Source of the DNA: Escherichia phage ph0011
Reading direction: 5' to 3' (one strand)
Length of the DNA stretch: 64,000 bases
Sequence record: OP557969.1
Positions 6,913-64,000 of this stretch are shown piece by piece (the first letter of the stretch is position 1; the number at the start of each line of letters is the position of its first letter). The notes beneath the pieces are model-generated. The model had not been told where the DNA came from, did not search any database, and saw nothing but the letters and a program-made list of their open reading frames with translations. A program made the position numbers and the translations under genes.

Positions 6913-6923
6913 GGAGATATATT

Positions 6924-7286: not shown

Positions 7287-7612
7287 TGGATTTAAAACCA
7301 ATTGTAGTGAACAAATACAAAGAACCGTATGATGTGTACATTGGTCGTGGGTCTAAATGGGGTAACCCATTTACCCATATCAATGATAAACAGACAAAAG
7401 CCGAATTCATTGTTGCTACAAGGGAAGAATCAATTGAAAAATTCCGAGAATACATTATTGACCGTATTTCTAATGGCGAAATTAAAATTGATGATTTACT
7501 TGAATTAGCAGGTAAACGTCTTGGATGTTTCTGCAAACCAAAATCATGTCACGGCGATGTTCTTGTTGAAATAGTGAGTGCAATATTAGATGAATTACCA
7601 GACGATAATTAA
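7283..7612 (+). CDS. DUF4326-like protein
   Basis: [12 protein letters not shown] ... [13 protein letters not shown] motif set; ATGA overlap with grcA. Confidence 0.6.
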
Positions 7613-8069: not shown

Positions 8070-8096
8070 TATTACAGAAATGTGGAAATATATGAA

Positions 8097-8121
8097 GAAG
8101 CACCCTTTGGGTGCTTTTTTT
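8097..8121 (+). terminator. intrinsic terminator
   Basis: gcaccc-ttt-gggtgc hairpin followed by 7 T. Confidence 0.7.
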
Positions 8122-8128
8122 ATAATAT

Positions 8129-8136
8129 TATAAATA
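8129..8136 (+). promoter_or_regulatory. T4-type late promoter motif TATAAATA
   Basis: exact TATAAATA about 30 nt upstream of the 8168 start. Confidence 0.55.
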
Positions 8137-8167
8137 CACTATGAATATCTAGATAGAAGGGATATAT

Positions 8168-35368: not shown

Positions 35369-37363
35369 ATGAATAATGAAGAATTGAAAAAACTTTTGTT
35401 GTCAAAACATATTAATTCATGGGTACATTTATACAAAGGGGACTCTCATGTGAGGGATCTCCTTTCTATTTTTGGAATAGAACCAAAAACTGATTTCGAA
35501 ATATATAAAATTCTATATATGTTCATGAATGATATATCAACAATCCCAACTGCATATTGCGGAAAAAAAGCAAGATATAAAAATTTTCAAAAAGGATTTT
35601 ATAAATTTTGCGATGATTATATTATTAATAAAAAAAATACATGTAATGTATGTCATGAAATGTATTATAAAAATCGAACAAATAAAACAAAATCAACATT
35701 AATGGGTATGTATGGTGTATCTAATGTGTCCCAGATCCAAGAAGTAAAGAAAAAGAAAGAAAAAACTAACATGGAGCGTTATGGTGTTTCTACTAATTTA
35801 CAAACATCAGAATCTAAAGAGAAAATCAAACAAACTAATATAGAGCGTTATGGATGTGAATATCCAAACCAAAACCCTGAAATATTTAATAAAGTAAAAG
35901 AGACAAATTTAAAAAAATATGGTGTTGAATTCCAAAGTAAAAGAAATGAAGTAAAAGAGAAAGCAAAAAATACAAATATCTTAAAATACGGTACTGAGTA
36001 CTCTTTATCATCACCGACGATTCGTGAAAAAATCAATAAAACAAATCTTGAACGATATGGTGGTAACCCACTATCAAATAAAATTATCCAAGATAAAATA
36101 AAAAATACCAATATATTGAAGTATAATTCATTTTATCCAATGAGCAATTTGGATGTTCAGAAAAAAGTTCATAATACAAATGTGGAAAGATATGGTGTAA
36201 AACACCCATCCCAGAATAATTCTATTATTGAAAAAATGAAAGAAACCACAAAAAATAGATATGGGGCTGAACACTACTCACAAACTGATGAGTATAAAGA
36301 GAAAATGTCACTTGCTCATCTAGACGAAAGATATACTATAATTGTTGAAAATATTGATAAAAACTATATTCCATTATTTGAAAACACAGACCTGATGATG
36401 AAAGTTAACACCGATGAATACCCATTTTGGTGTGAATATTGTGATGATTTGTTTTATAGTAAGTACAAAAATCATAAAGTGAAATGTAAGTGTCAGAAAA
36501 ATAATGGTCATTCCTTGAAAGAGAAAGAGTTAGTTGATTATATAAAATCATTAATACCAAATATGGAAATTATAGAAAATGACCGTTCAGTACTGAAACC
36601 TAAAGAGTTGGATGTGTATATTCCAGAACTTAAACTAGCTATTGAATTTAATGGTGTTTATTGGCATAATGATGAAAATATCAATTCTACTAAACATCAA
36701 GATAAGGTATTAGATTGCTTAAAACATGGTGTAAATCTTATTCACATTTATGAAGATGAATGGGATAACCCATTAACCAATAAAATTATCAAGGAACGTT
36801 TAAAGAATAAACTTCTAGCGTCTAATAGAATTTATGCTAGAAAATGTACTGTTAGAAACATAGACAAACAAGTAAGTAATAAGTTTGTGAAATCACATCA
36901 TATCCAAGGTGTTGCACAAGCAAGTATACACATTGGGCTTTACTATGGGTGCGATTTAGTTGCTGTTATGACCTTTGGTAAATCAAGGTTTGATAAAAAC
37001 TATGAATATGAATTAATCAGATACTGTTCATCTGGTACAGTTGTTGGTGGTGCATCAAAATTACTAAAATATTTCGAAACCGTATATAATCCACAATCAT
37101 TGTTGACATATGCTGATATGGATTGGAGTAATGGTAATCTTTACACGGTTCTTGGTTTTGAGTTAGATAGCTATACAGAACCTGGATATTTTTATTATGA
37201 CCCACAAACGCACGAGAGAATTTCACGTCAAAAATGTCAAAAACATAAATTGATTAAGAAAGGTCACGATATCAACTTAACCGAGAGACAAATTTGCTGT
37301 GATGTATTGGGATATTATAAGATTTACAACTCTGGTAATATAAAATACACAAAAAAATATTAA
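35369..37363 (+). CDS. multidomain protein: N-terminal region, eight tandem ~25-aa repeats with (E/K)(R/K)YG core, PD-(D/E)xK (Vsr/DUF559-like) endonuclease motif, C-terminal domain of unknown function
   Basis: repeats NMERYGVSTNLQ / NIERYGCEYPNQ / LKKYGVEFQS / ILKYGTEYSL / LERYGGNPLS / ILKYNSFYPM / VERYGVKHPS / NRYGAEHYS; ELDVYIPELKLAIEFNGVYWH nuclease-like motif. Confidence 0.5.
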   Translation: MNNEELKKLLLSKHINSWVHLYKGDSHVRDLLSIFGIEPKTDFEIYKILYMFMNDISTIPTAYCGKKARYKNFQKGFYKFCDDYIINKKNTCNVCHEMYYKNRTNKTKSTLMGMYGVSNVSQIQEVKKKKEKTNMERYGVSTNLQTSESKEKIKQTNIERYGCEYPNQNPEIFNKVKETNLKKYGVEFQSKRNEVKEKAKNTNILKYGTEYSLSSPTIREKINKTNLERYGGNPLSNKIIQDKIKNTNILKYNSFYPMSNLDVQKKVHNTNVERYGVKHPSQNNSIIEKMKETTKNRYGAEHYSQTDEYKEKMSLAHLDERYTIIVENIDKNYIPLFENTDLMMKVNTDEYPFWCEYCDDLFYSKYKNHKVKCKCQKNNGHSLKEKELVDYIKSLIPNMEIIENDRSVLKPKELDVYIPELKLAIEFNGVYWHNDENINSTKHQDKVLDCLKHGVNLIHIYEDEWDNPLTNKIIKERLKNKLLASNRIYARKCTVRNIDKQVSNKFVKSHHIQGVAQASIHIGLYYGCDLVAVMTFGKSRFDKNYEYELIRYCSSGTVVGGASKLLKYFETVYNPQSLLTYADMDWSNGNLYTVLGFELDSYTEPGYFYYDPQTHERISRQKCQKHKLIKKGHDINLTERQICCDVLGYYKIYNSGNIKYTKKY

Positions 37364-38453: not shown

Positions 38454-41117
38454 ATGGCAGGAGATCTACTCTCACCTGGCGTGTCTATCTCAGTAACTGA
38501 TAACAGTATGAGTACTGCTGCTGCTCCTGGCACAGTACCACTATTTGTAATTGCTACTGCTGAAGACAAACTTGTCCCTGGCAGCAACGCAATTGCCACT
38601 GGGACTACTAAAGCAAATGCAGGTAAATTGCAGCTTTTGACATCACAAAAAAGTTCACTTGATACCTACGGTACACCAATTTTCCAAACGAATAACGGAT
38701 CTGTTGTACAAGGAGATGAACTAAACGAATATGGTCTACATGCAGTATATTCATACCTAGGAATTACCAATCGTGCATATGTAATTCGTGCTGATATCGA
38801 CCTAGCACAACTTGCACCACGTGCTGAAGCTCCAACTGGTCCAGTATCTAATGGTACTTTGTGGTTTGACGCTGCACAATCGCAAGTTGAAGCATATGTA
38901 GCTAAAAAAGATAGTCCAAGTAGTTTTTATGATTGGCAACTTAAGCCAGTAACTTTTGTTAGTGCAGAAGAAGTTGATGATGTAAGCCTAGTAGGTTTAA
39001 ATGTTGATGATTTAGTTCTACGTTATAAGCCAAGTAATGGTCAGATGTTAATGTATAAGCGTACTGCTTCCGGTTTGGTTCAAATGGAAACCTACTTATC
39101 CCCAATTAACAAAGTTCCAGTAGGTCCAACAGTAGAAAAAGGTAACATTTGGATTCGTGATGGATATACACAAAACGGTTCTAACTATTTTGGTACTCGT
39201 TTTGTTATTAAACGTTATGCCTCGTTAACTCAAGTTTGGAATGTTGTACCAACATACACAGGTAATTCATTTCAAGAAATCGAAGCGAAAAGTGGAGTAC
39301 TAAACAATAGTTATATCGCATCTCGTTTTGATGAAGATAGTAAGAGTTTCTCTTTCTATATCCAAAGTGCTAAACTATCAACTATTAGTGCACCAGCGTT
39401 GCCATTAGGTGAAACTATCATTGAACAAGCTGGTGATGATAGTTACATGACATTTACTTACTTGAATAAGTCAGTGAAAGTACTAGCAGTACCGAATGGT
39501 GGTGTTATTAATACACAAACTATCATCAATAATCTGAATTCTAATGCTGAAGTGATTAACGATGGTTTCAAATTCAAACGCGAATCAAATGGTAGTTTAG
39601 TTGTTTCTAATATTAAAGGATATAGTTTCAAAATCACACAAAGTGGTGATGACATTTTTGCAGAAGACGAACTACAAAAACTAACTGTAAACAGCAACAA
39701 CTACTCTCAAATTAATATTAAAAACTTTCGTGTTAGTGAATCCGTGCCGCGTAATATCGCAAAAGATGGAACTTTGTGGTATGATTTCGGGAACTCAGAT
39801 AATCTAACTGTCACTCTATATGTGGCTGATGTGGCAAATGACAAATGGGAACTTGTACAAGATGAAAACAAATATGTACAAGTTGATGAACCAGCAGCAG
39901 ACCGTACAATTTGGGTATGCCCACTATCACAAGGTGTTGATGGTTATGAATTCTATCGCAATGTTGATGGCGAGTGGGTTAAGCTTGATAACACTGATCA
40001 AAGCACCCTAAATGGTATGGTTTTCCACGATTTTAATATTCCATCCACTGTTCCAGCAGCAGCATTATATCAAAATGGTATGTTGGCTGTTGATTTAGGC
40101 AACACTGAAGGTGTTGTTAAAAAAATGGTTAATGGTCAATGGGAAGTTGTTAGTGGTGTAAGTATTGATGGTGCTGGCTTGTTTGGTCGTGCTGCACAAC
40201 GCAAACTAGTTGTTGAAGCTTTGGCTGCTGTCATTGTAGGCAATGATGAAATTCGTTCTGAATTTATTGATTTTAACCTAATTTGTGTACCTGGGTATGT
40301 CGAAACACTATCTGATTGTGTAACACTAAACACTGATCGTAAAGAAACTGCATTTATTGTTACCGATGTACCAGCACGTTTAGATCCAACTGGAAACGGT
40401 AGTGCCGTACAGAAATGGGCAACCAATGCAAATAATGCACCAACTAATGGTCCAGTGGGTAGAACAACTGCATATGATTATGCTGCTCAGTATATGGGTT
40501 GGTGTTTAAGTACCAATGTTGACGGGATGGAAGTTGCTGTACCTGGAAGTACAATTGCGATGCGTACATATGCATACAGTGATAGTGTAAGTTATGTATG
40601 GTATCCACCTGCTGGTACAACTCGTGGTGTTGTAACTAATGCTGCAAGTACTGGTTTTATTAATAGTGAAGGTGAATATCAACCAGTCGTATACAATCAA
40701 GGTCAACGTGATGTTATGTATACTAATAACATTAACCCAATTGCGATGCGTCCTAATCGTGGATTGTTGGTATATGGTGATAAAACACTATCTGCTAACC
40801 AAACTTCCGCTTTAAGCCGTGTTAACGTAGCTCGTTTGGTTGTTTATATTCGTCGCCAACTAGAAATTATTTCTGAACCATTCCTATTCCGTTTGAATAC
40901 ACCAAGTACTCGTCAGGAATTCAGTGGTGTTGTGAATAGTTTCCTAGCTGAAATTGTACAACAACAAGGTCTATATAACTTTGCTGTAGTTTGTGATGAA
41001 AGCAACAATACTTCTGAACGTATTGATCGTAATGAACTATGGATGGATATTGCAATCCAACCAACTAAGTCTATCAACTTCATTTATGTACCAATTCGTA
41101 TTGAGAAGACTCAATAA
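38454..41117 (+). CDS. tail sheath protein (long form, 887 aa)
   Basis: N-terminal LLSPGV and C-terminal block LLVYGDKTLSANQTSALSRVNVARLVVYIRRQLEIISEPFLF ... NFAVVCDESNN match contractile-sheath family conservation; GGAGGA SD. Confidence 0.75.
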   Translation: MAGDLLSPGVSISVTDNSMSTAAAPGTVPLFVIATAEDKLVPGSNAIATGTTKANAGKLQLLTSQKSSLDTYGTPIFQTNNGSVVQGDELNEYGLHAVYSYLGITNRAYVIRADIDLAQLAPRAEAPTGPVSNGTLWFDAAQSQVEAYVAKKDSPSSFYDWQLKPVTFVSAEEVDDVSLVGLNVDDLVLRYKPSNGQMLMYKRTASGLVQMETYLSPINKVPVGPTVEKGNIWIRDGYTQNGSNYFGTRFVIKRYASLTQVWNVVPTYTGNSFQEIEAKSGVLNNSYIASRFDEDSKSFSFYIQSAKLSTISAPALPLGETIIEQAGDDSYMTFTYLNKSVKVLAVPNGGVINTQTIINNLNSNAEVINDGFKFKRESNGSLVVSNIKGYSFKITQSGDDIFAEDELQKLTVNSNNYSQINIKNFRVSESVPRNIAKDGTLWYDFGNSDNLTVTLYVADVANDKWELVQDENKYVQVDEPAADRTIWVCPLSQGVDGYEFYRNVDGEWVKLDNTDQSTLNGMVFHDFNIPSTVPAAALYQNGMLAVDLGNTEGVVKKMVNGQWEVVSGVSIDGAGLFGRAAQRKLVVEALAAVIVGNDEIRSEFIDFNLICVPGYVETLSDCVTLNTDRKETAFIVTDVPARLDPTGNGSAVQKWATNANNAPTNGPVGRTTAYDYAAQYMGWCLSTNVDGMEVAVPGSTIAMRTYAYSDSVSYVWYPPAGTTRGVVTNAASTGFINSEGEYQPVVYNQGQRDVMYTNNINPIAMRPNRGLLVYGDKTLSANQTSALSRVNVARLVVYIRRQLEIISEPFLFRLNTPSTRQEFSGVVNSFLAEIVQQQGLYNFAVVCDESNNTSERIDRNELWMDIAIQPTKSINFIYVPIRIEKTQ

Positions 41118-53753: not shown

Positions 53754-54347
53754 ATGACAAAGATTGAATTAGATGAAGCGATTAAAGGTTTATCTAATGT
53801 GTGTTTTAGTGGCGGGGCAGCAGGTGCTGACCGCCTTTTTTCTATCTATGCAAAAGATAATGGATTTGAAGTTGTTAATTTTTCATTTAAAGGTCATGAG
53901 CATAGTGTAGATGAAAATACTATATTAGAAATACCATCCAATATTCTATCTGATATTTCTATATTAAAGCAACTAAACATTGCATGTTACTCGTTGCAGA
54001 GAAAAGTACCAAAGCCTGGTTCTTATGTTTATAACTTACTTGCAAGGAATAGTTATCAAATACTTAATACAGAAAGAATATATTGTATTGCAAATATTAC
54101 ATCACCAACTAAGGTGAGTGGTGGTACTGCATGGGCAGTGCAGATGTACATGGATTCAGTTGAAAATCCTGAAATTTATTGTTATGATATGAATTCACGT
54201 TCTGTATTTTATTTTGACACAGTACTGAAAGAGTTTACTGAAACATTCTCAATACCAGAACCACACGGTAACTGGACTGGGATTGGTTCACGTAATGCTA
54301 CACAAAAACACATGGAACATTTTATTACATTTTTCAAGGAAGTATAA
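53754..54347 (+). CDS. Rossmann-like nucleotide-binding protein with GGxxGxD motif (SLOG/DprA/LOG-like; tentative)
   Basis: FSGGAAGADRLF near N-terminus resembles the glycine-rich loop of SLOG-superfamily domains. Confidence 0.35.
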   Translation: MTKIELDEAIKGLSNVCFSGGAAGADRLFSIYAKDNGFEVVNFSFKGHEHSVDENTILEIPSNILSDISILKQLNIACYSLQRKVPKPGSYVYNLLARNSYQILNTERIYCIANITSPTKVSGGTAWAVQMYMDSVENPEIYCYDMNSRSVFYFDTVLKEFTETFSIPEPHGNWTGIGSRNATQKHMEHFITFFKEV

Positions 54348-55987
54348 TGAAACAACTACAAGAACTATATCAAAAAATTCTAGATGAAGGCGTGGAAAGT
54401 GTTGACCGTACTGGTGTTGGTACAACCAAACTTATCGGTCAACAAATGCGTTTCGACCTTAACGATGGTTTTCCAGCAGTGACGACAAAACGTCTAGCAT
54501 GGAAAACAATGGTTGCTGAACTTTTATTTTTTATTAAAGGTATTCCAGACCGTCGAGTGATGCAGGAATTTTTACATGGTGAATTTAATGAAGATAAGAA
54601 CGATATTTGGAAAGGTAATTGTGTTGATATGAAAAATAAAAATCCATTAAAATTTAATGGATACAATTTAGGTAATATGTACCCAGTTTACTGGAGACGA
54701 ATGTATAAACCTGTTCCTAAAACAGTTAAAGTTAAACGTAAAAAAGACTTTGATTTTGAATATATTGAAAAATATAAATCATTTTATGATGATGTAGAAA
54801 TTGAAAAACATCATAAATCGGGTCAAACATTCATTGATATTAGGGGAGATGAGTTAGAATATCTTGGATTCAATGGACAGTATGAAAATAAACGACATTA
54901 TTTGAAATATAAGAACACGGGAACTATAATCAAACTCAATACATCTGAAATTGATATTAAACATAATAAACTTAATAGTGGTGAAGATTATTATAAAAAA
55001 AATTCAGTCGGTGGATATTTGGGTGCACCACGTGAAGTTCTTTCAAATGATCCATTGAACTCAAAAGTACAGAGCCTATGGTATAATATGCTTTCTCGTG
55101 TAAACACCTCTCCCAACTATAATAATATTAGTGTTAGCCCAAGGTGGTATAATTATTATAACTTCCTAACTGACATTCGTACTATACCACTGTTTTTTGA
55201 ATGGTTGGATGATCCAACATATTATGAATTAGATAAAGATTATTTTGGTTCATCTGTTTATTCAAGAAATACATGTACATTTTTACCCAAACATATCAAT
55301 CAAAAATTAATAAGAAAACGCAATGACTGTGCATTGGAAGTTGATGGAATACTTTATTATTCATTTACATGTTTTTATAAATCAATTTATGGTGGGAAAA
55401 CACAACCAAAAGATCCATTTACTTTTTTAGAAAATAACGGTCATACTTATATTATTCACGAAGAGACAGATGAATATGTATACCGTCCACAATTGTTTAT
55501 TGATCAATTAGAAACTGTTATTGAAAATATTAAACATGTCACCTTGAATGAAAATCATCCGGCTGGACGTAGATTGATTATGGATTCTTGGAATCCATCA
55601 TGGGAGGACGATTCAGTTCTGGGAATATGTCACCCATTTGTTCAATTCTTTGTAGTGAATGGAAAGCTGTCATGTGAGTTTTATATGCGTTCATCTGACA
55701 CATTTCTTGGATTACCACTGAATATATCATCATATGCATTATTGACGCACATGATTGCACAAATTACAGGTCTAGAAGTAGGAGAGCTAATTTACACTGC
55801 TGGTGATTGTCACATTTATAAAAATCACATTGAACAAGTAAAAGAACAACTACAACGAAAACCACGTGCATTACCTGAATTATGGATTGATCCTACTATT
55901 ACTGATATTGAAGATTTCACAATGGATTCTTTTAAATTGATTAATTACGATCCAATGCCAACAATTAAAGCACCGATGGCTGTATAA
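54347..55987 (+). CDS. td: thymidylate synthase (ThyA/Td) with about 260-aa in-frame internal insertion
   Basis: N-terminal DRTGVGT ... GFPAVTTKRLAWK and C-terminal CHPFVQFFV ... FLGLPLNISSYALLTHMIA ... IKAPMAV match ThyA/T4 Td; 546 aa versus about 265-290 aa for ordinary ThyA. Confidence 0.88.
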   Translation: MKQLQELYQKILDEGVESVDRTGVGTTKLIGQQMRFDLNDGFPAVTTKRLAWKTMVAELLFFIKGIPDRRVMQEFLHGEFNEDKNDIWKGNCVDMKNKNPLKFNGYNLGNMYPVYWRRMYKPVPKTVKVKRKKDFDFEYIEKYKSFYDDVEIEKHHKSGQTFIDIRGDELEYLGFNGQYENKRHYLKYKNTGTIIKLNTSEIDIKHNKLNSGEDYYKKNSVGGYLGAPREVLSNDPLNSKVQSLWYNMLSRVNTSPNYNNISVSPRWYNYYNFLTDIRTIPLFFEWLDDPTYYELDKDYFGSSVYSRNTCTFLPKHINQKLIRKRNDCALEVDGILYYSFTCFYKSIYGGKTQPKDPFTFLENNGHTYIIHEETDEYVYRPQLFIDQLETVIENIKHVTLNENHPAGRRLIMDSWNPSWEDDSVLGICHPFVQFFVVNGKLSCEFYMRSSDTFLGLPLNISSYALLTHMIAQITGLEVGELIYTAGDCHIYKNHIEQVKEQLQRKPRALPELWIDPTITDIEDFTMDSFKLINYDPMPTIKAPMAV

Positions 55988-55990
55988 ACG

Positions 55991-56020
55991 AAAAGGGAGA
56001 ACATATGTTCTCCCTTTTTT
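55991..56020. terminator. bidirectional intrinsic terminator at the convergence point
   Basis: aaaa-gggagaaca-ta-tgttctccc-tttttt: perfect palindromic stem flanked by A-run and T-run. Confidence 0.8.
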
Positions 56021-56021
56021 A

Positions 56022-58313
56022 TTATCTAATTGTTACCAATGTTCTTCCGTCGAAACGTACATCAGGAGTTGAAGGTATACTAAACACCACGTTAGTGCCG
56101 TTAAACGTCACGCTATCGACCTCAACACGAGTATATACACCAGGGCTAATCTGTTCCTGTATCTCTGCTGTAACGATGTTTGAGGCTGTTACTGTAAGGG
56201 TGTATGAATCACCACTTAATACCCATGATGAAATAGTAAATGCGTCTGTCCTAACTGAACCTGAACCAATAGGAACCCATTGCCCTTTTACCTTTTGCAT
56301 AGAGGTTCGTTCGGATGTAGAGTATGCAATCATACCATCGACACCCACTGAGTTATCAATGCTTGCTAGTACTGGCAACTGAATACCATATCTATTAAAA
56401 CGTGTACGGATAGTTCCATTATCATAGATACTTACATCAGCATAATTACCCATAGAAAGTTTCAAATCCGCTCCATCCAATGTCATTGAACTTTGATTTG
56501 TATTACTTTCTAGTGTGAGTACACCGTTAGCTAATAAATTGATATTTTTAAATTTATTACTATTTCCTTTAAAAGTTGTATTAGCATTAAAAGTACTTGC
56601 ACCGTTAACTACAATAGTATTTTCTGCTGTGTCGCCTAATATGGTATTACCATTCAAAGTGGTTTCACCATCTACTACAATATTGGATTCGAAAGTACTA
56701 TTACCATTTACTACAAGATTGGATTTAAAAGTTCCATCACCATCTACGTCTACAGTAGAATGGAAAGTACTCTTACCATTAACCACAATAGTATTTTCTG
56801 CGGTATCACCCAATATGGTATTACTATGAACAGTCAAATTACCACTGGTGGTAACATTACTAGCTAGTGTATCACCATTCAATGTACTTGTTCCATCTAC
56901 TACAATATTGGATTTGAAAGTACTTTTACCATTAACCACAATAGTATTTTCTGGGGTTTCACCCAATGTTGTATTACCATGAACATTCAAATTACCACTA
57001 GCAGTAATATTACTAGCTAATGTATCACCAACCAATGTACTAGTACCATCTACTACAATATTACCATGAAAAGCACTTTCACCATTTTTGAATTCAACTT
57101 GTTCTTTATTCATTGAACTAAATGAAATGATATTACTACTTGCACTTATTCCAACATTAGTATTAGTTGGATTATCGAATCTCAGAACTGGCGTTGACGC
57201 AGGTGATGATGTTGATTGATATAATGTCAATGTCGAATTGGTAATTCTAATACGTTCAGTTCCAGAAGTACTGAATCCAATAGCATCATCAGCAGGATGA
57301 AAAATACCAGTATTCGTGTCTGACCATTTTTCAGGGTCATTACCTGGGTTGCTTACTGGGTCGTATGGGCTATTGTTAAATGCAATTGCTGGTGCGGTAG
57401 CACTACCATAGGTCACACCAAATCTACCACCTCCTACTGTACCATCGTCGTACATGGAATCACCAGTCCTACGTAAGCATTCAATTACAACGTTGTCGAT
57501 TGATGTTTGAACGGTTCCTGCATTCGTTCTAAATGGACGATTATTTGCAATCATGATAGTATTATCATATAATACTGAAGCTGCTGAAATACTAGTTCTT
57601 GATTGACGAAGGCGAATGTTTTTATCTTCAGTGATAATGATCCAATCACCATCTGATAGTGCTGTTTGGTTCATTGGTACACCGGATGCAAACGGTTTAG
57701 TTAAATCTTCATCAGTTGCTAAGTTTACTAGCCCACTATGACCAGTACTGGGAATGGCGGTAGATACAATTCTCGCAAAAGCATATGTTACGAGTTTAGC
57801 ACCAGAAATATTTGGATTAGAATCAACATAATATAAAATTTCTACCCAATCACCCTGACCAGTTGGGTTAGTTGGAGTGAATGTCACTGTACTTGTTGTT
57901 GGTTTATTAGCTTCAAAGTGTGCTTGTGCTGCATCTATAATACCACGTACAACATAATAATCACCACTAAGTGATGCTGTAGGTGCAGGTAGTGGACTTT
58001 GTGCCAAAGGTGGGTCTATATCATCAGGGATTGGATTATACGTACCAACAAATTGTAAACCACTAGTTACTGAATCTGGTAACTGTGATGTAAGAAGTTT
58101 GCCGTTAGCATCTAAGTTTGCAAAACGTCTATATGCCATCGAGCCATCTTCAAAATCCAGAACACCCTCGAATGATTTCCATTCTTTATTGTATCTAATC
58201 ATCCCTGATCTTATTACGTCAGCGGTTTCTTTTGATGGTGCTTTTGGTAACTCTAAAAAAGATTTACTATCAATAATTACACCACCATCACCTCTAATTC
58301 GATTTATACTCAT
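56022..58313 (-). CDS. putative tail fibre / tailspike-like protein with tandem ~37-aa beta-rich repeats
   Basis: 763 aa; repeats NTIVVNGKSTF.SNIVVDGTSTL.GDTLASN.T.SGNL.VH.NT.LGDTAENTIVVNG; GAGGA SD before ATG at 58313. Confidence 0.55.
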   Translation of the reverse strand: MSINRIRGDGGVIIDSKSFLELPKAPSKETADVIRSGMIRYNKEWKSFEGVLDFEDGSMAYRRFANLDANGKLLTSQLPDSVTSGLQFVGTYNPIPDDIDPPLAQSPLPAPTASLSGDYYVVRGIIDAAQAHFEANKPTTSTVTFTPTNPTGQGDWVEILYYVDSNPNISGAKLVTYAFARIVSTAIPSTGHSGLVNLATDEDLTKPFASGVPMNQTALSDGDWIIITEDKNIRLRQSRTSISAASVLYDNTIMIANNRPFRTNAGTVQTSIDNVVIECLRRTGDSMYDDGTVGGGRFGVTYGSATAPAIAFNNSPYDPVSNPGNDPEKWSDTNTGIFHPADDAIGFSTSGTERIRITNSTLTLYQSTSSPASTPVLRFDNPTNTNVGISASSNIISFSSMNKEQVEFKNGESAFHGNIVVDGTSTLVGDTLASNITASGNLNVHGNTTLGETPENTIVVNGKSTFKSNIVVDGTSTLNGDTLASNVTTSGNLTVHSNTILGDTAENTIVVNGKSTFHSTVDVDGDGTFKSNLVVNGNSTFESNIVVDGETTLNGNTILGDTAENTIVVNGASTFNANTTFKGNSNKFKNINLLANGVLTLESNTNQSSMTLDGADLKLSMGNYADVSIYDNGTIRTRFNRYGIQLPVLASIDNSVGVDGMIAYSTSERTSMQKVKGQWVPIGSGSVRTDAFTISSWVLSGDSYTLTVTASNIVTAEIQEQISPGVYTRVEVDSVTFNGTNVVFSIPSTPDVRFDGRTLVTIR
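56560..57060 (-). repeat. tandem in-frame nucleotide repeats (about 111-nt units) inside fibre gene
   Basis: recurring blocks accacaatagtattttctg ... atggtattac visible on + strand text. Confidence 0.55.
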
Positions 58314-58361
58314 TTAAATATTTCCTCAGAATAGATTATATATGATGTATTTATTTTAGAT

Positions 58362-58393
58362 AAAAGAAAAGGCCAAGTATAGACCTGGCCTTT
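58362..58393 (-). terminator. intrinsic terminator (- strand) after 58400..59179 gene
   Basis: aaaggcca/tggccttt stem; T-rich tail on - strand. Confidence 0.55.
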
Positions 58394-58399
58394 AAAAAA

Positions 58400-59179
58400 T
58401 TATTTATTACGTTCAGGTATCTGAATACCTTCATATACCCATTTAGCAGCTTGTTGTGCTTTATAAATTGCATCTGGGTCAGAATCATCAACTGCATCAA
58501 TCGCTGCACATTGCTCTTCACATTCAGAAAATAGTTTTTCTACCATTGCGGATACTTCAGTATATAGTTGTGTCATTTCTTCTGAGGTAAGTTTTACAAT
58601 AGCATCATCCAGTATGATAGTGACATTTTCAGCACCCGACACTACTTGTGTATAATAATTAAGTAGCATTTGACGACCTGCAAGATCGGTATTGTAGCGA
58701 TGACCTTTGAATTCATAACCTGAATTAACACGAAATGCTCTCTCAGATAATGTTCTTTCTTTTAAATCTGTTTTTACATCAGCAATGGGTACATCAACAA
58801 AATTATAAGTTTTAAGTACTGTTAATGCTTTATATTCATCAGTTGCATCTTCCAAAAATTCCACCACTGGTTGCTTTTCATCTTTCAAACGAACATATTC
58901 CAATTGTTGGCCTTTTGAATTCACATTACCGACATTTTTATATTCTAACCACCAAAAACCTTCTTCTTTTCTCACTACATCATTCGGCTCTACTGGTGAA
59001 CCATCAACACTGGAAATTCCGTACAGAGTTCTAATATCACTATAAAGATAACGATAAGTCTGAGTATCATCGGGAGTTGCACCTGGACGTTCTTTAAGAC
59101 CTTTAACACCAATTGGATTAGTAATAATATTACCCAATTCATAATTTTCTTTTGAATCACCTTTCACATATGTGAACAT
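58400..59179 (-). CDS. hypothetical protein between two fibre genes (possible fibre assembly/accessory protein)
   Basis: 259-codon ORF; GAGGTAG SD; position between fibre genes. Confidence 0.5.
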   Translation of the reverse strand: MFTYVKGDSKENYELGNIITNPIGVKGLKERPGATPDDTQTYRYLYSDIRTLYGISSVDGSPVEPNDVVRKEEGFWWLEYKNVGNVNSKGQQLEYVRLKDEKQPVVEFLEDATDEYKALTVLKTYNFVDVPIADVKTDLKERTLSERAFRVNSGYEFKGHRYNTDLAGRQMLLNYYTQVVSGAENVTIILDDAIVKLTSEEMTQLYTEVSAMVEKLFSECEEQCAAIDAVDDSDPDAIYKAQQAAKWVYEGIQIPERNK

Positions 59180-59241
59180 ATAACTACCTCATTTGTTATG
59201 ATGGTGTCACCAAGTATAGGTGACACCTTTTATTATAATTA

Positions 59242-62200
59242 TTAAGCGGTACGTTGAGCAATAAACATATCTGCTACTGAACTTACACCATCGTAAATTA
59301 CCTGATAGATAGTTACAGAGTTTGCAGTTTTATTTAGAGTCCCATCAACAACAGCATATGTACCATCAGTAGTAAAGTTTCTATTACCAGTTGCATCTTG
59401 TTTAACATAAATGTATACTGATGATGCTTTTCCACCACCGATTAGACCAGTGATTGGTGCTAGAGTAGTATCTTGATCAAGAGTGATGAAGTATACGTTG
59501 CTAGTACCGTCAGGGGTCCAAGTACCATTCGGTGCAATAACAGAGGAAGTTACTTTACTTGGAATAACATCATACTTTTTGGTAGTTACGGTTGTAGTGG
59601 CGAGTTCTGCGTTGGTTGTAGTTAACTTACCAGTAACAGTTACTTCTTTATCAAACACCGCATTTTCTTTGAAAGTTGGTGTTGAATTAACAGTTAGTGT
59701 GTCAGTATTAGTATTACCTAAAACCACACTACCACTTGCTGTCATCAAACCAGAAACAGTTAGTGTACCACCAATAGTTGCATTACCAGTTACTGATGCA
59801 CTAGCAAGTGTAGCTGCACCAGATGTAGTTATTGTTGTAACAGATGCTGCCTCTAGTGTGGTTGCACCAGTTGCGGTAAGTTTACCATCAACTACTAGAT
59901 CACCAGTTACGGATGCACCACCGGACATTGTTACTGCCCCACCGAATGAACCAGTTGTAATTACTTCAAGTGTGTTACCTTTTAGTAATTCAGTTGCTGT
60001 GATACTTGTACCAGCGGTAATGCTTGTACCCGCAGAAACAGTATTAGTTGCAGTTAAGGACTTCACAGCTACATCAGAGTTAGCTTGGTTAAGTTTAGCA
60101 TTTAGAGTACCTGTTACTGTGAAGTCACCGTTGTTAACAACATTACCATTGATAGTTAGATTGTTATTTTGTGAACCGACATCACCAATTGTTGCTGATT
60201 TAGAAATTAACTCAGCACCAGCGGTAATGTTGCCAGCAGCACTGATATTGTTTGCTGCAACAACTGCATAAGGTTCAATTGTTTGACCACTAACATCAAT
60301 ATCTGCGTTAATACCACCATCAACACGCAAAGAACCAGCAATATATGTATTAGGGAAAATCTGAACAGTTTCAGTGTGTTCACCGACCTGTGTACCAACA
60401 ATAACATTAGATCCAGTTTTCACTGCACCAGAAGTTGTTAGAGAACCTACTGTTGCTTTGCCAGTAACACCTAGTGTACCGCCAACAGTTGCATTATTAG
60501 TTACTGCCAATGCTGTTCCTTCACCATTCAGTGTAATTGATGGAGCAGTTGCTTTACCAGTTACATCTAGTGTACCACCAACAGTTGCATTACCATCTGA
60601 ATGTATTGTTGTTGCAACAGAAAGACTGTTTGCAATTACATCCGCACCAGTCAAATCCAATGCACCTGGTGTTAATGTACCAGTAATGTTAACATTATTA
60701 CCAAAGGTTGCTGCACCAGTTACATCTAGTGTAGTGCTAAATGTACCAGAAGTTGCAGAGATTGCACCAGATTCAAGTGAACCAACAGTGGTTTTTCCAG
60801 TTACACCCAGTGTACCACCAACTGTTCCATTTGTTGTAACTTCTAGTGTTCCAGTACTTAGATCTTTTGCTGTCACTTTACCAGATGCGTTAACAGTTGT
60901 TGTTGTAACACCACCACTTAGGGTGCTTGTCCCAGTAACACTGAGTGTTTTTGCTGCACTAACGCTGTTTACAGTAAGATCAGCACCTGATAGGTCTAAA
61001 CCACCTTCAGGAATAAAATTACCCTTAACTGTTAGTTGTTGAACAGTACTGTCACCAGTTACATCTAGTGTAGAAGCAGTCAAACCACCATTCATACTTG
61101 CTGCACCAGTAACATCTAGTGTAGTTGTTACAGTTGCACTGTTTAGTGTGGAGCTACCGGAAATATTAGCACTAGGTGCAGTAATAGATCCTTTTACAAC
61201 TTGTACATCACCCGCAACAACATCAATACCACCAGCATTAACTGTTAGTTTTTCAGCAGTATTCAACGTACTTGAAATTGTTGTTGCACCAGTTAAGGTT
61301 GTAGTTCCAGCTACACTTATGTTTCCAGAGATAGATGGATTACCTGTAATGTCACCAGTAGTGAGAACCAATTCAGTACCTACAGTAGTAGAACCAGTAC
61401 TTTCTAGTGTTACACCAACGATGTTTGCAGAACTTAGGTTAATAGTACCATCAACAGTTAAGTTACCGTGAACGGTCGCATCACCAAGTGAATTTAATGT
61501 TTTCACTGAAACATCAGTTTTACTAAGGTCAATTACACCCGCAGTAAGTGTTCCAGATACTGCCAAATTACCAGTTATTGCTGTATTTTTAGTAATAGAT
61601 ACTGTTTCTGATGCTGACGTAATGGAGCCAGCAGTAAGTGCCCCACCAATGGTTGCATTGTTAGTTACGGTTAACGCTGTTTCTTCACCAGATAGTGTTA
61701 AAGAAATACCATTCATTTCACCAGTAATATTTGCCGATGCCGCAGAAATATCACCAGCAACTACCGCATTTGTTGCGTTTAGGGTTGTTGTGGTAATTTC
61801 AGTACTTTTCACTTTAGGTAGTGCGTTGATACCATCTTTACTATTAACTGTAATAATACCAGAACTTGTTAGAGATTTAACAGAAACATCTGCACCACTT
61901 AAGTTAACTGTACCAGAAACAACTAGATCGCCACCAATATTAGCTCCTTCTGTTGTAGTGATTGATTTTGCATTAACTTCAGTGTTACTCAAATCAATTG
62001 CACCAGGTGATACAGTTCCAGAAACTGTGAGATTACCAGTAACTGTAGTATCATTAGAAATAGATACGCCATCATCATTGCTAATTGTTGGGGTTTCAAT
62101 TGTAACAGCTTTAACTTTACCAGAAGAAGTCATGTCAGCAACAGTAGATGCACCAGTGACCTTTAGATTAGTAATATTTGCAGTAGTTGAGCCAAGTGTA

Positions 62201-64000
62201 GTAATCGTACCATCAGTACTTTCTAGTTTAGGAAGAACACTAGCAATAGAAGATTCGTTACTAACAATTGCACCAGTACTAGTTAAAGATTTGACAGTAA
62301 CATCAGCCGTAGTAAGATCTACTGTACCATTAACAGTTAGGTTACCACCAATAGTTGCACCAGCAGTAGTAGTAATGGATTTAGCATTAACATCAGTTGT
62401 TGCTAGATCGATAGAACCTGGAATAACTGCACCAGTAACGGTTAGGTCACCAGTTACATTTGTATTATTGGAAATAGTGACACCACTTGCATTTGAAATG
62501 GTTGGGGTAACCAACGATGCAGTTGTAGTTTCACCAGTTACAGTTAAAGTTGACCCAACTAGAACAGATGAGCTTGAGTAAATTGTACCCAAATTAGCAG
62601 ATCCGGTAACAGTTATATCATCAGCATTAACAGTAGTTGTCGTTATGGTAGTACTATTAAGTACTGGAAGTACGTTAGCATTAACAAGATCATTACTTTT
62701 AACAATACCAGAAGTAGTTAATGATTTAACATTAAGGTTGGCTGCTGATAAATCAAAAGAGCCTTGAACTACTAAATCACCACCAATAGTTGCACCAGCA
62801 GTAGTAGTGATTGATTTAGCATTAATATCGGTAGTGCTCAAGTCTAGAGAACCAACAGTTAAGCTACCAGTAATATCAACATTTTCGGTGAAGTTAGTAT
62901 CACCACTAATAGTTGGTGCAGTAAGATTTGTTGCACTAATATTAGTACCGTTAATTGTTTGCCCACTTACAGTTCCACTCGCAGTGATAGTAGGAGCCGT
63001 TACTTCAGTAGATGCACTAATTGTTGGTGCAGATACAGAAGTTGTACCAGTAATAGTACCAGAACTTACTGAACCAGCGGATAATGCACCAGAAAGAGTT
63101 GCAGTTGTACCAGCAATATCACCAGTAACAGTTAGTTTAGCACCCACGGTAGTGTTACCAGTACTTTCAAGTGTTGCACCTTTAATATTTGCTGCCGCGA
63201 CAACAGAATTAGGTGTTAGATCTTGACCACTAACATCAACAGTTAGTCCAGTTACTGTTCCAGTAAATTCAACATCATTAAGAATTGCCTTACCACCAAC
63301 TGTAAGGTATGGTGTACTTGGGTCTTGAGTATCGTTACCAGTGATAGTTAGATAATCTAGTTTGTTTAGGCCGTTACCAGTAATACCATAAGAAGATAGT
63401 GATGCATTACCAAAGGTAGCAGTTTTAAGTACTTTCAATGTTGCTGGGGAAACCAACTCAGATTGAACTTCATTAGGTAAAATAACGGTTGGACGTTTAT
63501 CTTGTGCGGTATACGCAAAACCTAGTTTCACAGCAGAATCTTGTGAATTTTGACCTAAACTAATAGCTTTAAAAGAAGCAGTACCGTTTAAACCAGTAAT
63601 ATTAGATCCTAGTGTAACACCACCAACTAAAGAAGACGCACCCTTTATATTTAAAGTGTTTGCATCAATATCATCAAGTTGGAAATCACCACCAAATGTA
63701 CCGGAAACATTAATATTATTAAAATTAGCAGTACCAGTACTTTCAATATCTGGAATGGTTGCTGTTCCAGTAACCTCAAAATCAGCAACTTTAGTTTTAC
63801 CTTTTGTCACTTCTAGAAGTGGGGTGTCAGGTGATTGTGTATCGTTACCAGAAACGGTTAGATAATCTAGTTTGTTTAGACCATTACCAGTAATACCATA
63901 AGAAGACAATGATGCATTACCAAAAGTAGCAGAAGTTAAAACTGTCAATTTAGCAGGTGACATTAATTCAGATTGAATTTCATTTTGTAGAATTACTGTT
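59242..64000 (-). CDS. giant repetitive fibre/adhesin-like protein, 5'-partial (N-terminus beyond window end)
   Basis: more than 1580 codons, T/G/S/V-rich; frame stays open past 63963 with residues matching an internal repeat (NEVQSELVSPATLKVL...). Confidence 0.6.
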   Translation of the reverse strand, partial: TVILQNEIQSELMSPAKLTVLTSATFGNASLSSYGITGNGLNKLDYLTVSGNDTQSPDTPLLEVTKGKTKVADFEVTGTATIPDIESTGTANFNNINVSGTFGGDFQLDDIDANTLNIKGASSLVGGVTLGSNITGLNGTASFKAISLGQNSQDSAVKLGFAYTAQDKRPTVILPNEVQSELVSPATLKVLKTATFGNASLSSYGITGNGLNKLDYLTITGNDTQDPSTPYLTVGGKAILNDVEFTGTVTGLTVDVSGQDLTPNSVVAAANIKGATLESTGNTTVGAKLTVTGDIAGTTATLSGALSAGSVSSGTITGTTSVSAPTISASTEVTAPTITASGTVSGQTINGTNISATNLTAPTISGDTNFTENVDITGSLTVGSLDLSTTDINAKSITTTAGATIGGDLVVQGSFDLSAANLNVKSLTTSGIVKSNDLVNANVLPVLNSTTITTTTVNADDITVTGSANLGTIYSSSSVLVGSTLTVTGETTTASLVTPTISNASGVTISNNTNVTGDLTVTGAVIPGSIDLATTDVNAKSITTTAGATIGGNLTVNGTVDLTTADVTVKSLTSTGAIVSNESSIASVLPKLESTDGTITTLGSTTANITNLKVTGASTVADMTSSGKVKAVTIETPTISNDDGVSISNDTTVTGNLTVSGTVSPGAIDLSNTEVNAKSITTTEGANIGGDLVVSGTVNLSGADVSVKSLTSSGIITVNSKDGINALPKVKSTEITTTTLNATNAVVAGDISAASANITGEMNGISLTLSGEETALTVTNNATIGGALTAGSITSASETVSITKNTAITGNLAVSGTLTAGVIDLSKTDVSVKTLNSLGDATVHGNLTVDGTINLSSANIVGVTLESTGSTTVGTELVLTTGDITGNPSISGNISVAGTTTLTGATTISSTLNTAEKLTVNAGGIDVVAGDVQVVKGSITAPSANISGSSTLNSATVTTTLDVTGAASMNGGLTASTLDVTGDSTVQQLTVKGNFIPEGGLDLSGADLTVNSVSAAKTLSVTGTSTLSGGVTTTTVNASGKVTAKDLSTGTLEVTTNGTVGGTLGVTGKTTVGSLESGAISATSGTFSTTLDVTGAATFGNNVNITGTLTPGALDLTGADVIANSLSVATTIHSDGNATVGGTLDVTGKATAPSITLNGEGTALAVTNNATVGGTLGVTGKATVGSLTTSGAVKTGSNVIVGTQVGEHTETVQIFPNTYIAGSLRVDGGINADIDVSGQTIEPYAVVAANNISAAGNITAGAELISKSATIGDVGSQNNNLTINGNVVNNGDFTVTGTLNAKLNQANSDVAVKSLTATNTVSAGTSITAGTSITATELLKGNTLEVITTGSFGGAVTMSGGASVTGDLVVDGKLTATGATTLEAASVTTITTSGAATLASASVTGNATIGGTLTVSGLMTASGSVVLGNTNTDTLTVNSTPTFKENAVFDKEVTVTGKLTTTNAELATTTVTTKKYDVIPSKVTSSVIAPNGTWTPDGTSNVYFITLDQDTTLAPITGLIGGGKASSVYIYVKQDATGNRNFTTDGTYAVVDGTLNKTANSVTIYQVIYDGVSSVADMFIAQRTA
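63329..63990 (-). repeat. two ~150-nt near-identical direct repeats about 510 nt apart inside giant fibre gene
   Basis: gtatcgttaccag ... gttagataatctagtttgtttag ... ttaccagtaataccataagaaga ... tgatgcattaccaaa at about 63329 and about 63839. Confidence 0.7.

Follow-up and report, generated by a model that had tools for sequence, protein, structure and literature searches.

The choice of bacterial host depends on the tail fibres of a phage, and therapy of pathogenic E. coli with Asteriusvirus jumbo phages is being proposed. The last part of the 64,000-nucleotide stretch of DNA analysed here (the window) carries three neighbouring genes on the - strand, one of them giant and internally repetitive. 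Which parts of the adsorption apparatus do these genes specify, and does recombination between their repeats change the length of the fibres? The window belongs to an Asteriusvirus-like jumbo coliphage with 85–89% nucleotide identity to UE-S1, 121Q, and phAPEC6. Judged by its sequence, the source phage is new within the Asteriusvirus-like group and is a different species from 121Q, phAPEC6, and UE-S1 (~85% nucleotide identity).

The explanation favoured here, and considered probable as a whole, is that the block encodes two fibres, one long and one with an adjustable stalk, plus a DUF4376 chaperone or cap, and that fibre lengths change by repeat units. This gives a corrected parts list of the main Asteriusvirus fibre module, together with a natural fibre-length polymorphism that involves the deletion of one in-register unit at a 15-nt microhomology. 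The module itself is ordinary for 121Q/RaK2-like phages and is no new kind of system.

Layout and synteny of the block

The three genes form a conserved module on the - strand, downstream of the thymidylate synthase gene (td). The convergent td ends at 55987 and the 763-aa gene at 56022, and between them lies an inverted repeat at 55990–56019, a hairpin with a 13-bp stem including five GC pairs. A terminator scan finds T-runs on both flanks of this hairpin, UE-S1 has an annotated terminator at the matching position, and the structure looks like a bidirectional terminator. The earlier note had described three convergent - strand genes after a terminator, one of them a 5'-partial frame of more than 1580 codons. 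Both statements are confirmed by the hairpin, the 763-aa and 259-aa reading frames, and the giant frame, which comprises 1585 sense codons and is stop-free to the window edge.

The long tail-fibre gene (59242–64000, - strand) is represented by its 3' part, 1585 of 1834 codons, and is open to the edge of the window. It is separated from the next gene by a GC-rich hairpin at 59203–59227 (9-bp stem, six GC pairs), whose counterpart position in UE-S1 is annotated as a terminator. The 259-aa DUF4376 gene (58400–59179, - strand) is orthologous to 121Q gp570 and CBB_225 and belongs to phrog_17968. The intergenic region behind it contains a terminator-like hairpin on the - strand (58368–58393; 11-bp stem, five GC pairs, T-rich tail). 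The 763-aa second fibre gene (56022–58313, - strand) is orthologous to 121Q gp569 and CBB_224 and belongs to phrog_14293.

The same gene order, giant, 259-aa, and 763-aa, is present in 121Q, UE-S1, CBB, GAP32, and fENko-Kae01. Similar to the block described here, 121Q gp569–gp571, phAPEC6 gp256, and UE-S1_518–520 lie in this order beside td and share 84–88% amino acid identity with it. The block is probably the host-adsorption module of RaK2-like jumbo myophages, flanked by the thymidylate synthase gene on one side and a conserved gene for a 'tail protein' on the other. A depolymerase domain is absent from all three genes, and an Rfam scan of the window, in which a group I intron in td was sought, gave no match.

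The giant gene and its relation to known long tail fibres

The giant protein is an orthologue of 121Q gp571, phAPEC6 gp256, CBB_226, and fENko-Kae01 WNV47359. It matches the tail-fibre family phrog_4549 with E = 2.9e-161, is 87.9% identical in amino acids to the SP27 and 121Q fibre, and is collinear with the 1841-aa 121Q gp571. The giant proteins of 121Q, phAPEC6, and UE-S1 likewise have the 170-aa unit twice and the ~140-aa unit three to four times, and are collinear with it save for indels of 1–6 aa. The full-length protein has 1834 aa in two contigs, L014 and L015, and the latter differs from the window at 7 of 4758 nt. Threonine (19.0%), glycine (11.6%), serine (10.6%), and valine (10.0%) are abundant in the partial protein, as the earlier note had stated. 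Virion mass spectrometry has detected phAPEC6 gp256, CBB_226, and fENko-Kae01 WNV47359. Homology and the published virion mass spectrometry of homologues support the view, already taken in that note, that the giant gene and the 763-aa gene encode virion fibre proteins.

The C-terminal tip domain (59245–59568, - strand; aa ~1478–1585 of the partial protein) is shared with phiTE/CR3/rV5-like long fibres. In a PDB search, residues 1399–1582 of the query align with residues 616–792 of 9cuy_g, the phiTE long tail fibre (E = 2.1e-27), and this match covers a shaft segment as well as the C-terminus. The tip also gives tblastn matches to the C-termini of Vequintavirinae tail fibres. The family PF26209 (Phage_phiTE_241_C) is listed in a precomputed table for the same C-terminal fragment in contig L009.

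The phiTE long tail fibre (PDB 9cuy/9mjn, Vequintavirinae) thus resembles the giant in its homologous tip (PF26209) and in a shaft segment with T/G/V-rich β-helix repeats. It is a trimer with an extended β-helix and a predicted length of 512 Å for 793 aa (PMC11972413), whereas the giant has 1834 aa. The experimental model of the phiTE fibre covers residues 14–171 only, and the parts that match the giant are unsolved. The N-terminus of the giant lies outside the window, and the search for an anchor used that of 121Q gp571; its N-terminal 450 aa match nothing in the PDB at E < 0.3, the phiTE anchor included. No counterpart of the N-terminal helical bundle that anchors the phiTE fibre was found in the 121Q orthologue.

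The giant would be a long tail fibre of ~100–120 nm and 1834 aa. Its shaft would consist of tandemly duplicated segments (2 × 170 aa, 3–4 × ~140 aa, and degenerate ones) and would carry at its end a tip domain of ~110 aa like that of the phiTE long tail fibre. We infer that the shaft is a trimeric β-helix from its composition, its pervasive internal repeats, and its homology to the predicted β-helix of phiTE; the attachment points of the fibres on the particle are presumptive. The term adhesin-like, used in the earlier note, is apt in the generic sense of a β-helical shaft and does not hold beyond that sense.

Some relatives are annotated as trimeric autotransporter or YadA-type adhesins, and no Pfam family of the YadA head, stalk, or anchor was found in the giant at E <= 0.01. 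Bactofilin (PF04519) reaches 39 bits for the whole sequence, yet no single stretch passes the Pfam threshold. The full-length 121Q orthologue gives no match to this family, and sub-fragments score 12.9–17.9 bits against a cut-off of 27.9. Read from the sequence, the Bactofilin match is a resemblance in repeats and composition only.

In electron micrographs of phAPEC6, CBB, and fEgEco12, only short baseplate fibres and 'hairs' are visible, a poor fit to a classical 100-nm baseplate fibre.

Repeats in the shaft of the giant fibre

The tandem repeats of ~170 aa claimed for the giant are present, with 73% identity between aa 1–79 and 171–248 and a unit of 170 aa (510 nt). The DNA copies, described in the earlier note as near-identical at ~63329 and ~63839, are more diverged than that. 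Over the 166 nt of positions 63325–63490 and 63835–64000 the identity is 81%, and the longest exact run has 23 nt; the entire 510-nt unit, copy versus copy, has 62% nucleotide and 56.5% amino acid identity. The giant contains only two copies of this unit. Copy 2 (63232–63741, - strand) carries at its head the microhomology AGTACTGGTACTGCT (gene strand; 63727–63741), which is the joint of the natural one-unit deletion allele. Copy 1 (63742–64000, - strand), which is missing from the 1664-aa allele, has its last 259 of 510 nt in the window, and these are 63.7% identical to the corresponding part of copy 2.

Three to four tandem shaft modules of ~138–155 aa are located at 61600–62913 (- strand; aa 363–800) and show 56–62% identity at offsets of 138, 145, and 155 in self-BLAST. 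The self-comparison was made by segment-against-whole BLAST; whole-protein BLASTP gave the identity match alone. A 30-nt exact repeat occurs at 62344 and 62779, and weaker repeats are found elsewhere in the shaft. An independent duplication of 198 aa is present in CBB_226. High-frequency contingency switching would call for repeats of ~95% identity or more with extended exact tracts; the best repeat pairs in the block reach 81% and 84%, and its longest exact runs have 23–30 nt.

Between near-identical genomes, SNPs cluster at ~61898–62047, at 19–24 per 500 nt versus 1–3 elsewhere. A test for gene conversion between the modules of ~140 aa as the source of the cluster found a match to a paralogous donor at 7 of the 25 informative sites. 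A patch imported from another phage is more likely than gene conversion.

Length alleles of the giant gene

Two natural alleles of the giant gene exist, one of 1834 aa with two 170-aa units (the window, L014, and L015) and one of 1664 aa with a single unit (L008–L011). The genomes that bear them are 99.2–99.5% identical and belong to the same phage species, and the 1664-aa allele distinguishes this species from the 121Q module. The proposal in the earlier note that repeat recombination lets the fibre length vary is thus borne out within one species. The shorter allele is an in-frame deletion of exactly 510 nt with a 15-nt microhomology and a hybrid junction, and it is this microhomology, not the most similar stretch of the repeat, that marks the junction. 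The nucleotide alignment of the window to L008–L011 breaks at window position 63750, and the absence of copy 1 is plain in the protein alignment. Among the named Asteriusvirus isolates, no change of copy number was found in the giant, whose lengths are 1827–1841 aa with indels of 1–6 aa. A search of IMG/VR and JGI metagenomes with exact 35-mers gave no further alleles. The polymorphism surfaced only upon examination of contigs of the same species.

An assembly artefact, that is, a collapsed or expanded repeat, is a very improbable source of the copy-number difference. Short-read assemblies underlie every allele, several contigs break within the giant gene, L019 ends 3 nt from the breakpoint, and L009 has a frameshift. 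However, the units are 62% identical with exact runs of at most 23 nt, and the 15-nt microhomology is shorter than the usual k-mer sizes of assemblers. The one-unit form comes from four samples in ENA and Logan assemblies, and three of the four (L008, L009, and L011) have an identical 120-nt junction sequence, while L010 differs within the junction. The two-unit form is present in three independent assemblies and is also the state in 121Q, phAPEC6, and UE-S1. Samples ERZ27258023 and SRR22520433 carry the two-unit allele, and ERZ28597589, ERZ28595294, SRR32103870, and DRR831854 the one-unit allele. Moreover, the alleles are accompanied by linked SNPs in the flanking sequence, and the length polymorphism therefore looks like an inherited lineage difference that stems from one deletion rather than ongoing switching.

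Both fibres of the module probably evolve in length as entire repeat units are gained or lost in frame and in register, which would proceed via unequal or microhomology-mediated recombination between diverged repeats. The natural deletion points to sites at which the shaft can become shorter or longer, a help in the engineering of fibres.

The 259-aa DUF4376 protein

The 259-aa gene, which the earlier note had grouped with the fibre- and adhesin-like genes, belongs instead to a chaperone-type family. Pfam PF14301 (DUF4376) matches the protein with 34.8 bits against a cut-off of 25, and the domain occupies aa 135–237 (58469–58777, - strand). The match to phrog_17968 has E = 3.5e-77. In precomputed annotation, PF14301 is assigned to 8 of the 9 homologues found, including those closest to the 259-aa protein. 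The DUF4376 domain is modelled by AF2 with a pLDDT of ~90, and the N-terminal 130 aa are distinct and highly conserved with a pLDDT below 50. A PDB sequence search with the protein gave no match.

In phages of Alteromonas and Campylobacter, DUF4376 proteins serve tail fibres as chaperones or caps (PMC10579305, PMC10877375), and for the V22 and A5 proteins a fold like that of the intramolecular chaperone domains of T5 pb1 and K1F endosialidase has been proposed. Similar to Alteromonas V22 gp27, A5 gp9, and Campylobacter F341_034, the 259-aa protein has a C-terminal DUF4376 domain and is encoded immediately 3' of a fibre gene; its gene starts 62 nt past the stop codon of the giant. Proteins of this type can remain associated with the fibre, and homologues of the 259-aa protein likewise occur in virions: CBB_225 was found in CBB virions with 68.5% coverage and the fENko-Kae01 homologue by LC-MS/MS, both in abundance. 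In contrast to the Alteromonas and Campylobacter proteins, the 259-aa protein has its own conserved 130-aa N-terminal part and its homologues are abundant in virions. By analogy, it is a putative chaperone that probably aids folding and trimerisation of the tip of the long fibre and then stays on the virion as a cap.

The 763-aa second fibre

The 763-aa protein matches phrog_14293 with E = 0, and tblastn finds its homologues in 71 RaK2-like phages. Its N-domain (aa 1–~400) and its C-domain of ~162 aa (~aa 600–763) are both constant and enclose a repeat stalk. The length-variable stalk (56559–57098, - strand; aa ~406–585) is composed of 51-aa units with a sub-period of ~11–12 aa. The repeat of ~37 aa given in the earlier note is replaced by this period: the autocorrelation at 51 aa has z = 4.3, as opposed to z = 1.2–1.7 at offsets of 34–40 aa. 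The best tandem pair of the stalk, 56740–56892 and 56893–57045, is 84% identical over 153 nt.

Across the 112 homologues of the gp569 family, the N- and C-domains are constant, and the stalk length varies between 0 and 485 aa. In an alignment of 70 of its sequences, the N-domain has 352–410 aa, the stalk 0–485 aa, and the C-domain 134–174 aa in 69 of the 70, with 397 aa in P0109. Close relatives of the 763-aa protein form a unit series of 1, 2, 3, and 3+, in keeping with the suggestion that fibre length varies. Compared to the 121Q homologue (654 aa), which has one stalk unit, the 763-aa protein has about four. CBB_224 is present in virions (22 peptides, 47.8% coverage). The AF2 monomer model has an overall pLDDT of 75.7 and values of 55–60 in the stalk; Foldseek finds no PDB match for it at E < 0.06, and a PDB sequence search likewise gave none. 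The 763-aa protein would be a second, shorter fibre with a constant N-domain that presumably anchors on the particle and a β-helix-like stalk of 51-aa units that sets the fibre length.

Alternative architectures

The giant may be assigned differently, to the 'hairy' whiskers on the sheath and capsid of phAPEC6, CBB, and fEgEco12 instead of a long fibre at the baseplate. The hairs would then bind or entangle host filaments such as flagella, and the 763-aa protein would form the six short baseplate fibres. This assignment is unlikely, although the phAPEC6 and CBB literature explicitly leaves the hairs without assigned gene products and the dimensions speak for it. Electron microscopy shows short baseplate fibres only, which in CBB have 28.6 nm, and hairs of 119 ± 10 nm; scaling from phiTE (512 Å/793 aa), a crude estimate, predicts ~100 nm for the 1553 aa of CBB_226 and ~118 nm for a protein of 1834 aa. 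The N-terminus of the giant opens straight into shaft-like repeats with no match to a baseplate anchor, and RaK2, for which hairs are unreported, is without the giant gene. On the other hand, hairs are also unreported for GAP32, which has the orthologue GAP32_220, and the authors of the CBB study expected hair genes to be absent from GAP32. Moreover, the nearest solved relative, the phiTE fibre, is a long tail fibre attached to the baseplate, and the giant gene sits among tail and baseplate genes.

It is more doubtful still that the three proteins build one jointed fibre, with the giant as the proximal part, the 259-aa protein as the hinge, and the 763-aa protein as the distal, receptor-binding half. 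The genes of T4 run in the order 34, 35, and 36/37 for the proximal half, the hinge, and the distal half, and the order of the block is parallel to it; the giant is annotated as 'long tail fiber proximal subunit' in relatives, and all three homologues occur in CBB virions. However, the 259-aa protein is a member of the DUF4376 chaperone family, the tip domain of the giant is terminal in phiTE-type fibres, and Pfam and PDB searches found no sequence similarity to T4 gp34–37. In addition, the 763-aa protein has a stalk-less homologue in RaK2 and further Klebsiella phages, which are without the giant and DUF4376 genes; at the td locus of RaK2, ORF060w (510 aa) stands alone. The 763-aa protein must therefore attach independently. 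Two separate fibres, the longer of which has a putative DUF4376 chaperone or cap, remain the preferred reading of the block.

Receptor and reach

Flagellotropism has been reported for the Asteriusvirus SHEFM2K, fENko-Kae01, and phiTE, and by analogy with these relatives the receptor of the giant may be the flagellum. A bolder proposal, to which we give rather little credence, is that the giant is the ~120-nm flagellum-binding hair or whisker of Asteriusvirus and Mimasvirus, and that natural in-register gain and loss of its 170-aa units, along with the 51-aa units of the companion fibre, would tune the reach to the host surface. If true, a flagellum-binding hair would account for the odd morphology of the group as well as for its reported flagellotropism. 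The unassigned 'hairy' appendages and the flagellum dependence reported for SHEFM2K and fENko-Kae01 are two leads in this direction.

The fibre set beyond the block

The earlier note had also counted fibre paralogues on the plus strand and called the fibre set of the phage unusually large. Neither claim is upheld. The plus-strand proteins of 899 and 913 aa are 26% identical to each other, belong to a PHROG family of unknown function, and have no Pfam match, no PDB match, and no fibre signature. Many fibre genes are the norm among RaK2-like jumbo phages, and RaK2 has ten tail-fibre proteins (PMC10253068). The branched fibres of RaK2/phiK64-1 (gp098, gp526–gp534) are comparable to the block in that they belong to the same phage group, one that carries numerous receptor-binding proteins. 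In contrast to the block, the RaK2 fibre genes lie at a locus different from that of td; this locus follows nrdD/nrdG, as do the 899- and 913-aa paralogues on the plus strand of the window.

Organization of the fibre block

Three minus-strand genes converge on td, the plus-strand thymidylate synthase gene that ends at 55987: a 763-aa gene (56022–58313), a 259-aa gene (58400–59179), and the giant long tail-fibre gene, whose 3' end is at 59242 and whose 1585 sense codons reach the window edge without a stop. This layout is borne out by ORF listing and translation, and what an earlier note on this DNA described is largely correct, some of its numbers requiring correction. Between the convergent genes is a hairpin with a 13-bp stem flanked by T-runs (55990–56019), and others follow the 259-aa gene (58368–58393) and the giant gene (59203–59227).

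The region shares 85–89% nucleotide identity with the Escherichia-infecting Asteriusvirus jumbo phages UE-S1, 121Q, PBECO4, phAPEC6, and SHEFM2K. An identical copy of the 763-aa protein is on record in an E. coli genome assembly, on a 70.5-kb contig, and also in 348–349-kb metagenome scaffolds, apparently this phage's complete genome. The window is therefore a new species-level member of the known jumbo-phage genus Asteriusvirus. Two database proteins (P0001 and P0113), identical or 98% identical to window proteins, are recorded as 'Escherichia coli' (WJW27_003730/31) and lie on that 70.5-kb contig, which makes the window a lytic jumbo-phage contig inside a bacterial genome assembly.

121Q encodes its counterparts as gp569, a 654-aa 'structural protein', gp570 of 259 aa, and gp571, an 1841-aa 'tail fiber protein'. 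Upstream of them, also on the minus strand, are genes for a structural protein (298 aa), a WcaM-like protein that degrades colanic acid, and a tail protein (371 aa). UE-S1, CBB, GAP32, and fENko-Kae01 have the same gene order. RaK2 has only ORF060w (510 aa), ORF061w, and ORF062w at this locus, and its well-studied branched fibres gp526–534 are encoded elsewhere, after nrdD/nrdG. The module is a known one and the block a new member of it; its added value is a documented natural one-unit deletion allele together with a variable-stalk architecture.

Repeats and natural length alleles of the giant fibre

Residues 1–79 of the giant are 73% identical to residues 171–248, an offset of 170 aa; aa 363–800 hold three to four modules of ~138–155 aa that are 56–62% identical, and weaker repeats extend to about aa 1490. 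The 170-aa unit of the earlier note exists, but its near-identity was overstated: the DNA repeat (63325–63490 vs 63835–64000) reaches 81% identity over 166 nt, its longest exact run being 23 nt, and the complete 510-nt unit has 62% nucleotide and 56.5% amino acid identity between copies. Full-length orthologues have exactly two such units. The CBB homologue, CBB_226, has its own 198-aa duplication with up to 84% identity, and segmental duplication of the shaft is therefore recurrent across lineages.

The giant is collinear across the named Asteriusvirus isolates (1827–1841 aa, indels of 1–6 aa), and its identity pattern is mosaic, some parts being closest to 121Q and others to UE-S1. Contigs of the window's own species carry two alleles, and the predicted variation in fibre length is thereby found within one species. 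Two assemblies (L014 and L015) encode 1834 aa, in exact agreement with the prediction for the window's gene, and L015 differs from the window at 7 of 4758 nt. Four assemblies from four samples (L008–L011) match the window at 99.3–99.5% identity across 17.7 kb, and their giant gene encodes 1664 aa, the alignment breaking off at 63750. The deletion removes one repeat unit, exactly 510 nt (170 codons). The short allele matches first the 5' flank and then the head of unit 1, and continues in unit 2 from within a 15-nt microhomology, AGTACTGG(T/A)ACTGCT (window 63727–63741). The two-unit state is the ancestral one, shared with 121Q, phAPEC6, and UE-S1.

Repeats that collapse during assembly could also yield a shorter gene. 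This origin of the 1664-aa allele is implausible because the units are only 62% identical and the shared tract is below the usual k-mers; the 120-nt junction sequence is identical in three of the four one-unit assemblies, L010 differing inside that stretch. The alleles are also linked to flanking differences, namely 0 vs 1–5 aa changes in the 259-aa protein and a SNP-dense patch at about 61898–62047, and the data therefore show the 1834/1664-aa difference as an inherited lineage polymorphism; rapid switching would go beyond them.

The SNP-dense patch (giant nt 2700–2850 in the 1834-aa allele) has 23 mismatches in 150 nt within the tandem-module region of genomes otherwise 99.2–99.5% identical, and was probably imported by recombination from another phage. 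Conversion from paralogous modules is the less likely source, a paralogous donor matching 7 of 25 informative sites. In the part of the giant gene downstream of the junction, 26 of 70 differences are non-synonymous. One contig (L019, logan ERR15903923_317) ends 3 nt upstream of the microhomology where the alleles diverge, a weak hint of a mixed sample; the end could be an assembly-graph branch if the sample held both alleles, or chance. In L009 (logan DRR831854_3239, 4078–9073), a frameshift splits the giant into overlapping 850- and 823-aa ORFs. The total length equals that of the 1664-aa allele, and the frameshift is probably an assembly or sequencing error, a real pseudogene being the less likely reading.

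The giant as a probable long tail fibre

The giant is rich in T (19%), G (11.6%), S (10.6%), and V (10%), as previously noted, and matches PHROG 4549 (tail fibre) at E = 2.9e-161. Its only relative in a PDB sequence search is 9cuy/9mjn chain g (E = 2.1e-27), the long tail fibre (793 aa) of phiTE, a flagellotropic myophage, and the match spans a shaft segment (query 136–358) and the C-terminal ~180 aa (query 1399–1582). A precomputed table gives Pfam PF26209 (Phage_phiTE_241_C) for the same C-terminal fragment, and many Vequintavirinae and related phages have tail-fibre C-termini that match the giant's last ~110 aa. The phiTE fibre is described as trimeric, with an extended beta-helix, and is predicted to be 512 A long; its experimental model covers residues 14–171 only (PMC11972413). 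Crude scaling from phiTE would give the 1834-aa fibre a length of ~118 nm. The giant's N-terminus lies outside the window; that of the 121Q orthologue begins directly with shaft-like repeats, and no similarity to the phiTE baseplate anchor was found in it. A Pfam Bactofilin match to the giant gives no passing domain and is lost on the 121Q orthologue and on fragments; it reflects beta-helix-like repeats and not family membership.

Published mass spectrometry places close and distant homologues of the block in virions, and the possibility that they are not virion proteins thus fails for these homologues. CBB virions contain CBB_224 (763-aa homologue; 22 peptides, 47.8% coverage), CBB_225 (259-aa homologue; 16 peptides, 68.5% coverage), and CBB_226 (10 peptides) (PMC5259590). 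The giant homologue of phAPEC6, gp256 (180 kDa), was likewise detected (PMC7247149), as were homologues of the giant and the 259-aa protein in fENko-Kae01.

The 259-aa and 763-aa proteins

The 259-aa gene had been taken as fibre-like, but aa 135–237 of its product match Pfam DUF4376 (34.8 bits vs a curated cut-off of 25). DUF4376 proteins encoded directly downstream of fibre genes have been described as tail-fibre chaperones; in Campylobacter phages the description is of receptor-binding-protein assembly chaperones, and in Alteromonas phages V22 and A5 they remain weakly bound and are proposed as transient 'caps' (PMC10579305, PMC10877375). AF2 predicts the domain as helices linked by beta-hairpins (pLDDT ~90), whereas the N-terminal 130 aa gave no fold (pLDDT < 50 with a 10-sequence alignment). 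The gene therefore encodes a putative fibre accessory and not a fibre. The abundance of CBB_225 in virions fits a retained cap, and the N-terminal 130 aa may hold the protein on the virion. This part (window 58400–58790 region) is highly conserved, with an invariant RKEEGFWWL motif, and is without family assignment.

No match to the 763-aa protein was found among Pfam families or PDB sequences. Its family comprises 112 proteins, with 71 phage records across all RaK2-like genera. In an alignment of 70 members, an N-domain of 352–410 aa and a C-domain of 134–174 aa (except P0109, whose C-terminal part is 397 aa) flank a central region of 0 aa (RaK2-like Klebsiella phages) up to 485 aa; 121Q-type phages have 91 aa there, one relative has 136 aa, UE-S1 193 aa, and the window 200 aa. 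In the window's 763-aa protein the period of this region is 51 aa (autocorrelation z = 4.3, sub-period ~11–12 aa), in place of the 37 aa proposed earlier, and the gene has a 153-nt tandem pair of 84% identity. Close relatives form a series of 1, 2, 3, and 3+ copies of a ~45–57-aa unit, NIVVDGTS..GD..ASNITASGNL.V..NT.LGD....T..VNG.STF. AF2 (pLDDT 75.7) gives confident terminal domains and a low-confidence stalk, for which 'beta-helix-like' is reasonable but not proven.

Adsorption, receptor, and placement

Both fibres, the long one and the shorter one of 763 aa, would act as adsorption organelles, with the DUF4376 protein helping and capping the long-fibre tip. Gain or loss of repeat units would alter fibre reach and leave the end domains undisturbed. 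The 763-aa protein must attach without the giant, since RaK2-type phages retain its homologue but lack both the giant and the chaperone. A competing placement equates the giant with the 'hairs' of CBB and phAPEC6, unassigned structures of ~119 nm; only short baseplate fibres are seen in EM of these phages. GAP32 argues against this placement, as it has the giant gene and hairs are not reported for it. The flagellum is a possible receptor class on circumstantial grounds: SHEFM2K is reported to be flagellotropic, as cited in PMC11895373, phiTE is flagellotropic, and fENko-Kae01 is flagellum-dependent, its sole annotated long tail fibre being the syntenic orthologue of the giant.

Plus-strand paralogues and endonuclease-like genes

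Two plus-strand paralogues of 899 aa (8168–10867) and 913 aa (11479–14220) flank a 196-aa ORF (10878–11468) that is a copy of their C-terminal part. Previously called fibre paralogues, they are non-repetitive, 26% identical to each other, match only phrog_3573, a PHROG of unknown function, and gave no match in Pfam and PDB searches. They follow nrdD/nrdG, the position of the RaK2 tail-fibre cluster, and are possibly receptor-binding proteins. This hypervariable locus is covered by phage A4 alone (92% coverage, 90.8% identity), other relatives reaching ~20%. Many fibre genes are the rule in RaK2-like phages (PMC10253068), and the fibre set is therefore not unusually large; of the earlier interpretation, the fibres and the length variation stand, and the fibre-like 259-aa gene and the unusual set do not.

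The td gene (54347–55987, plus strand) encodes 546 aa vs 309 aa in 121Q, with an in-frame insertion of ~240 aa between the enzyme halves that resembles HNH endonucleases (PHROG 2081/953, aa 178–339); UE-S1 has a related 517-aa version. An Rfam scan of the window found neither a group I intron nor any other Rfam family, and the inserted segment may be an intein, a fused homing endonuclease, or simply tolerated. A further large gene resembling mobile endonucleases lies in the structural region: a plus-strand 664-aa ORF (35369–37363), just upstream of the tail sheath gene (38454–41117), matches homing and HNH endonuclease PHROGs (3339, 559).
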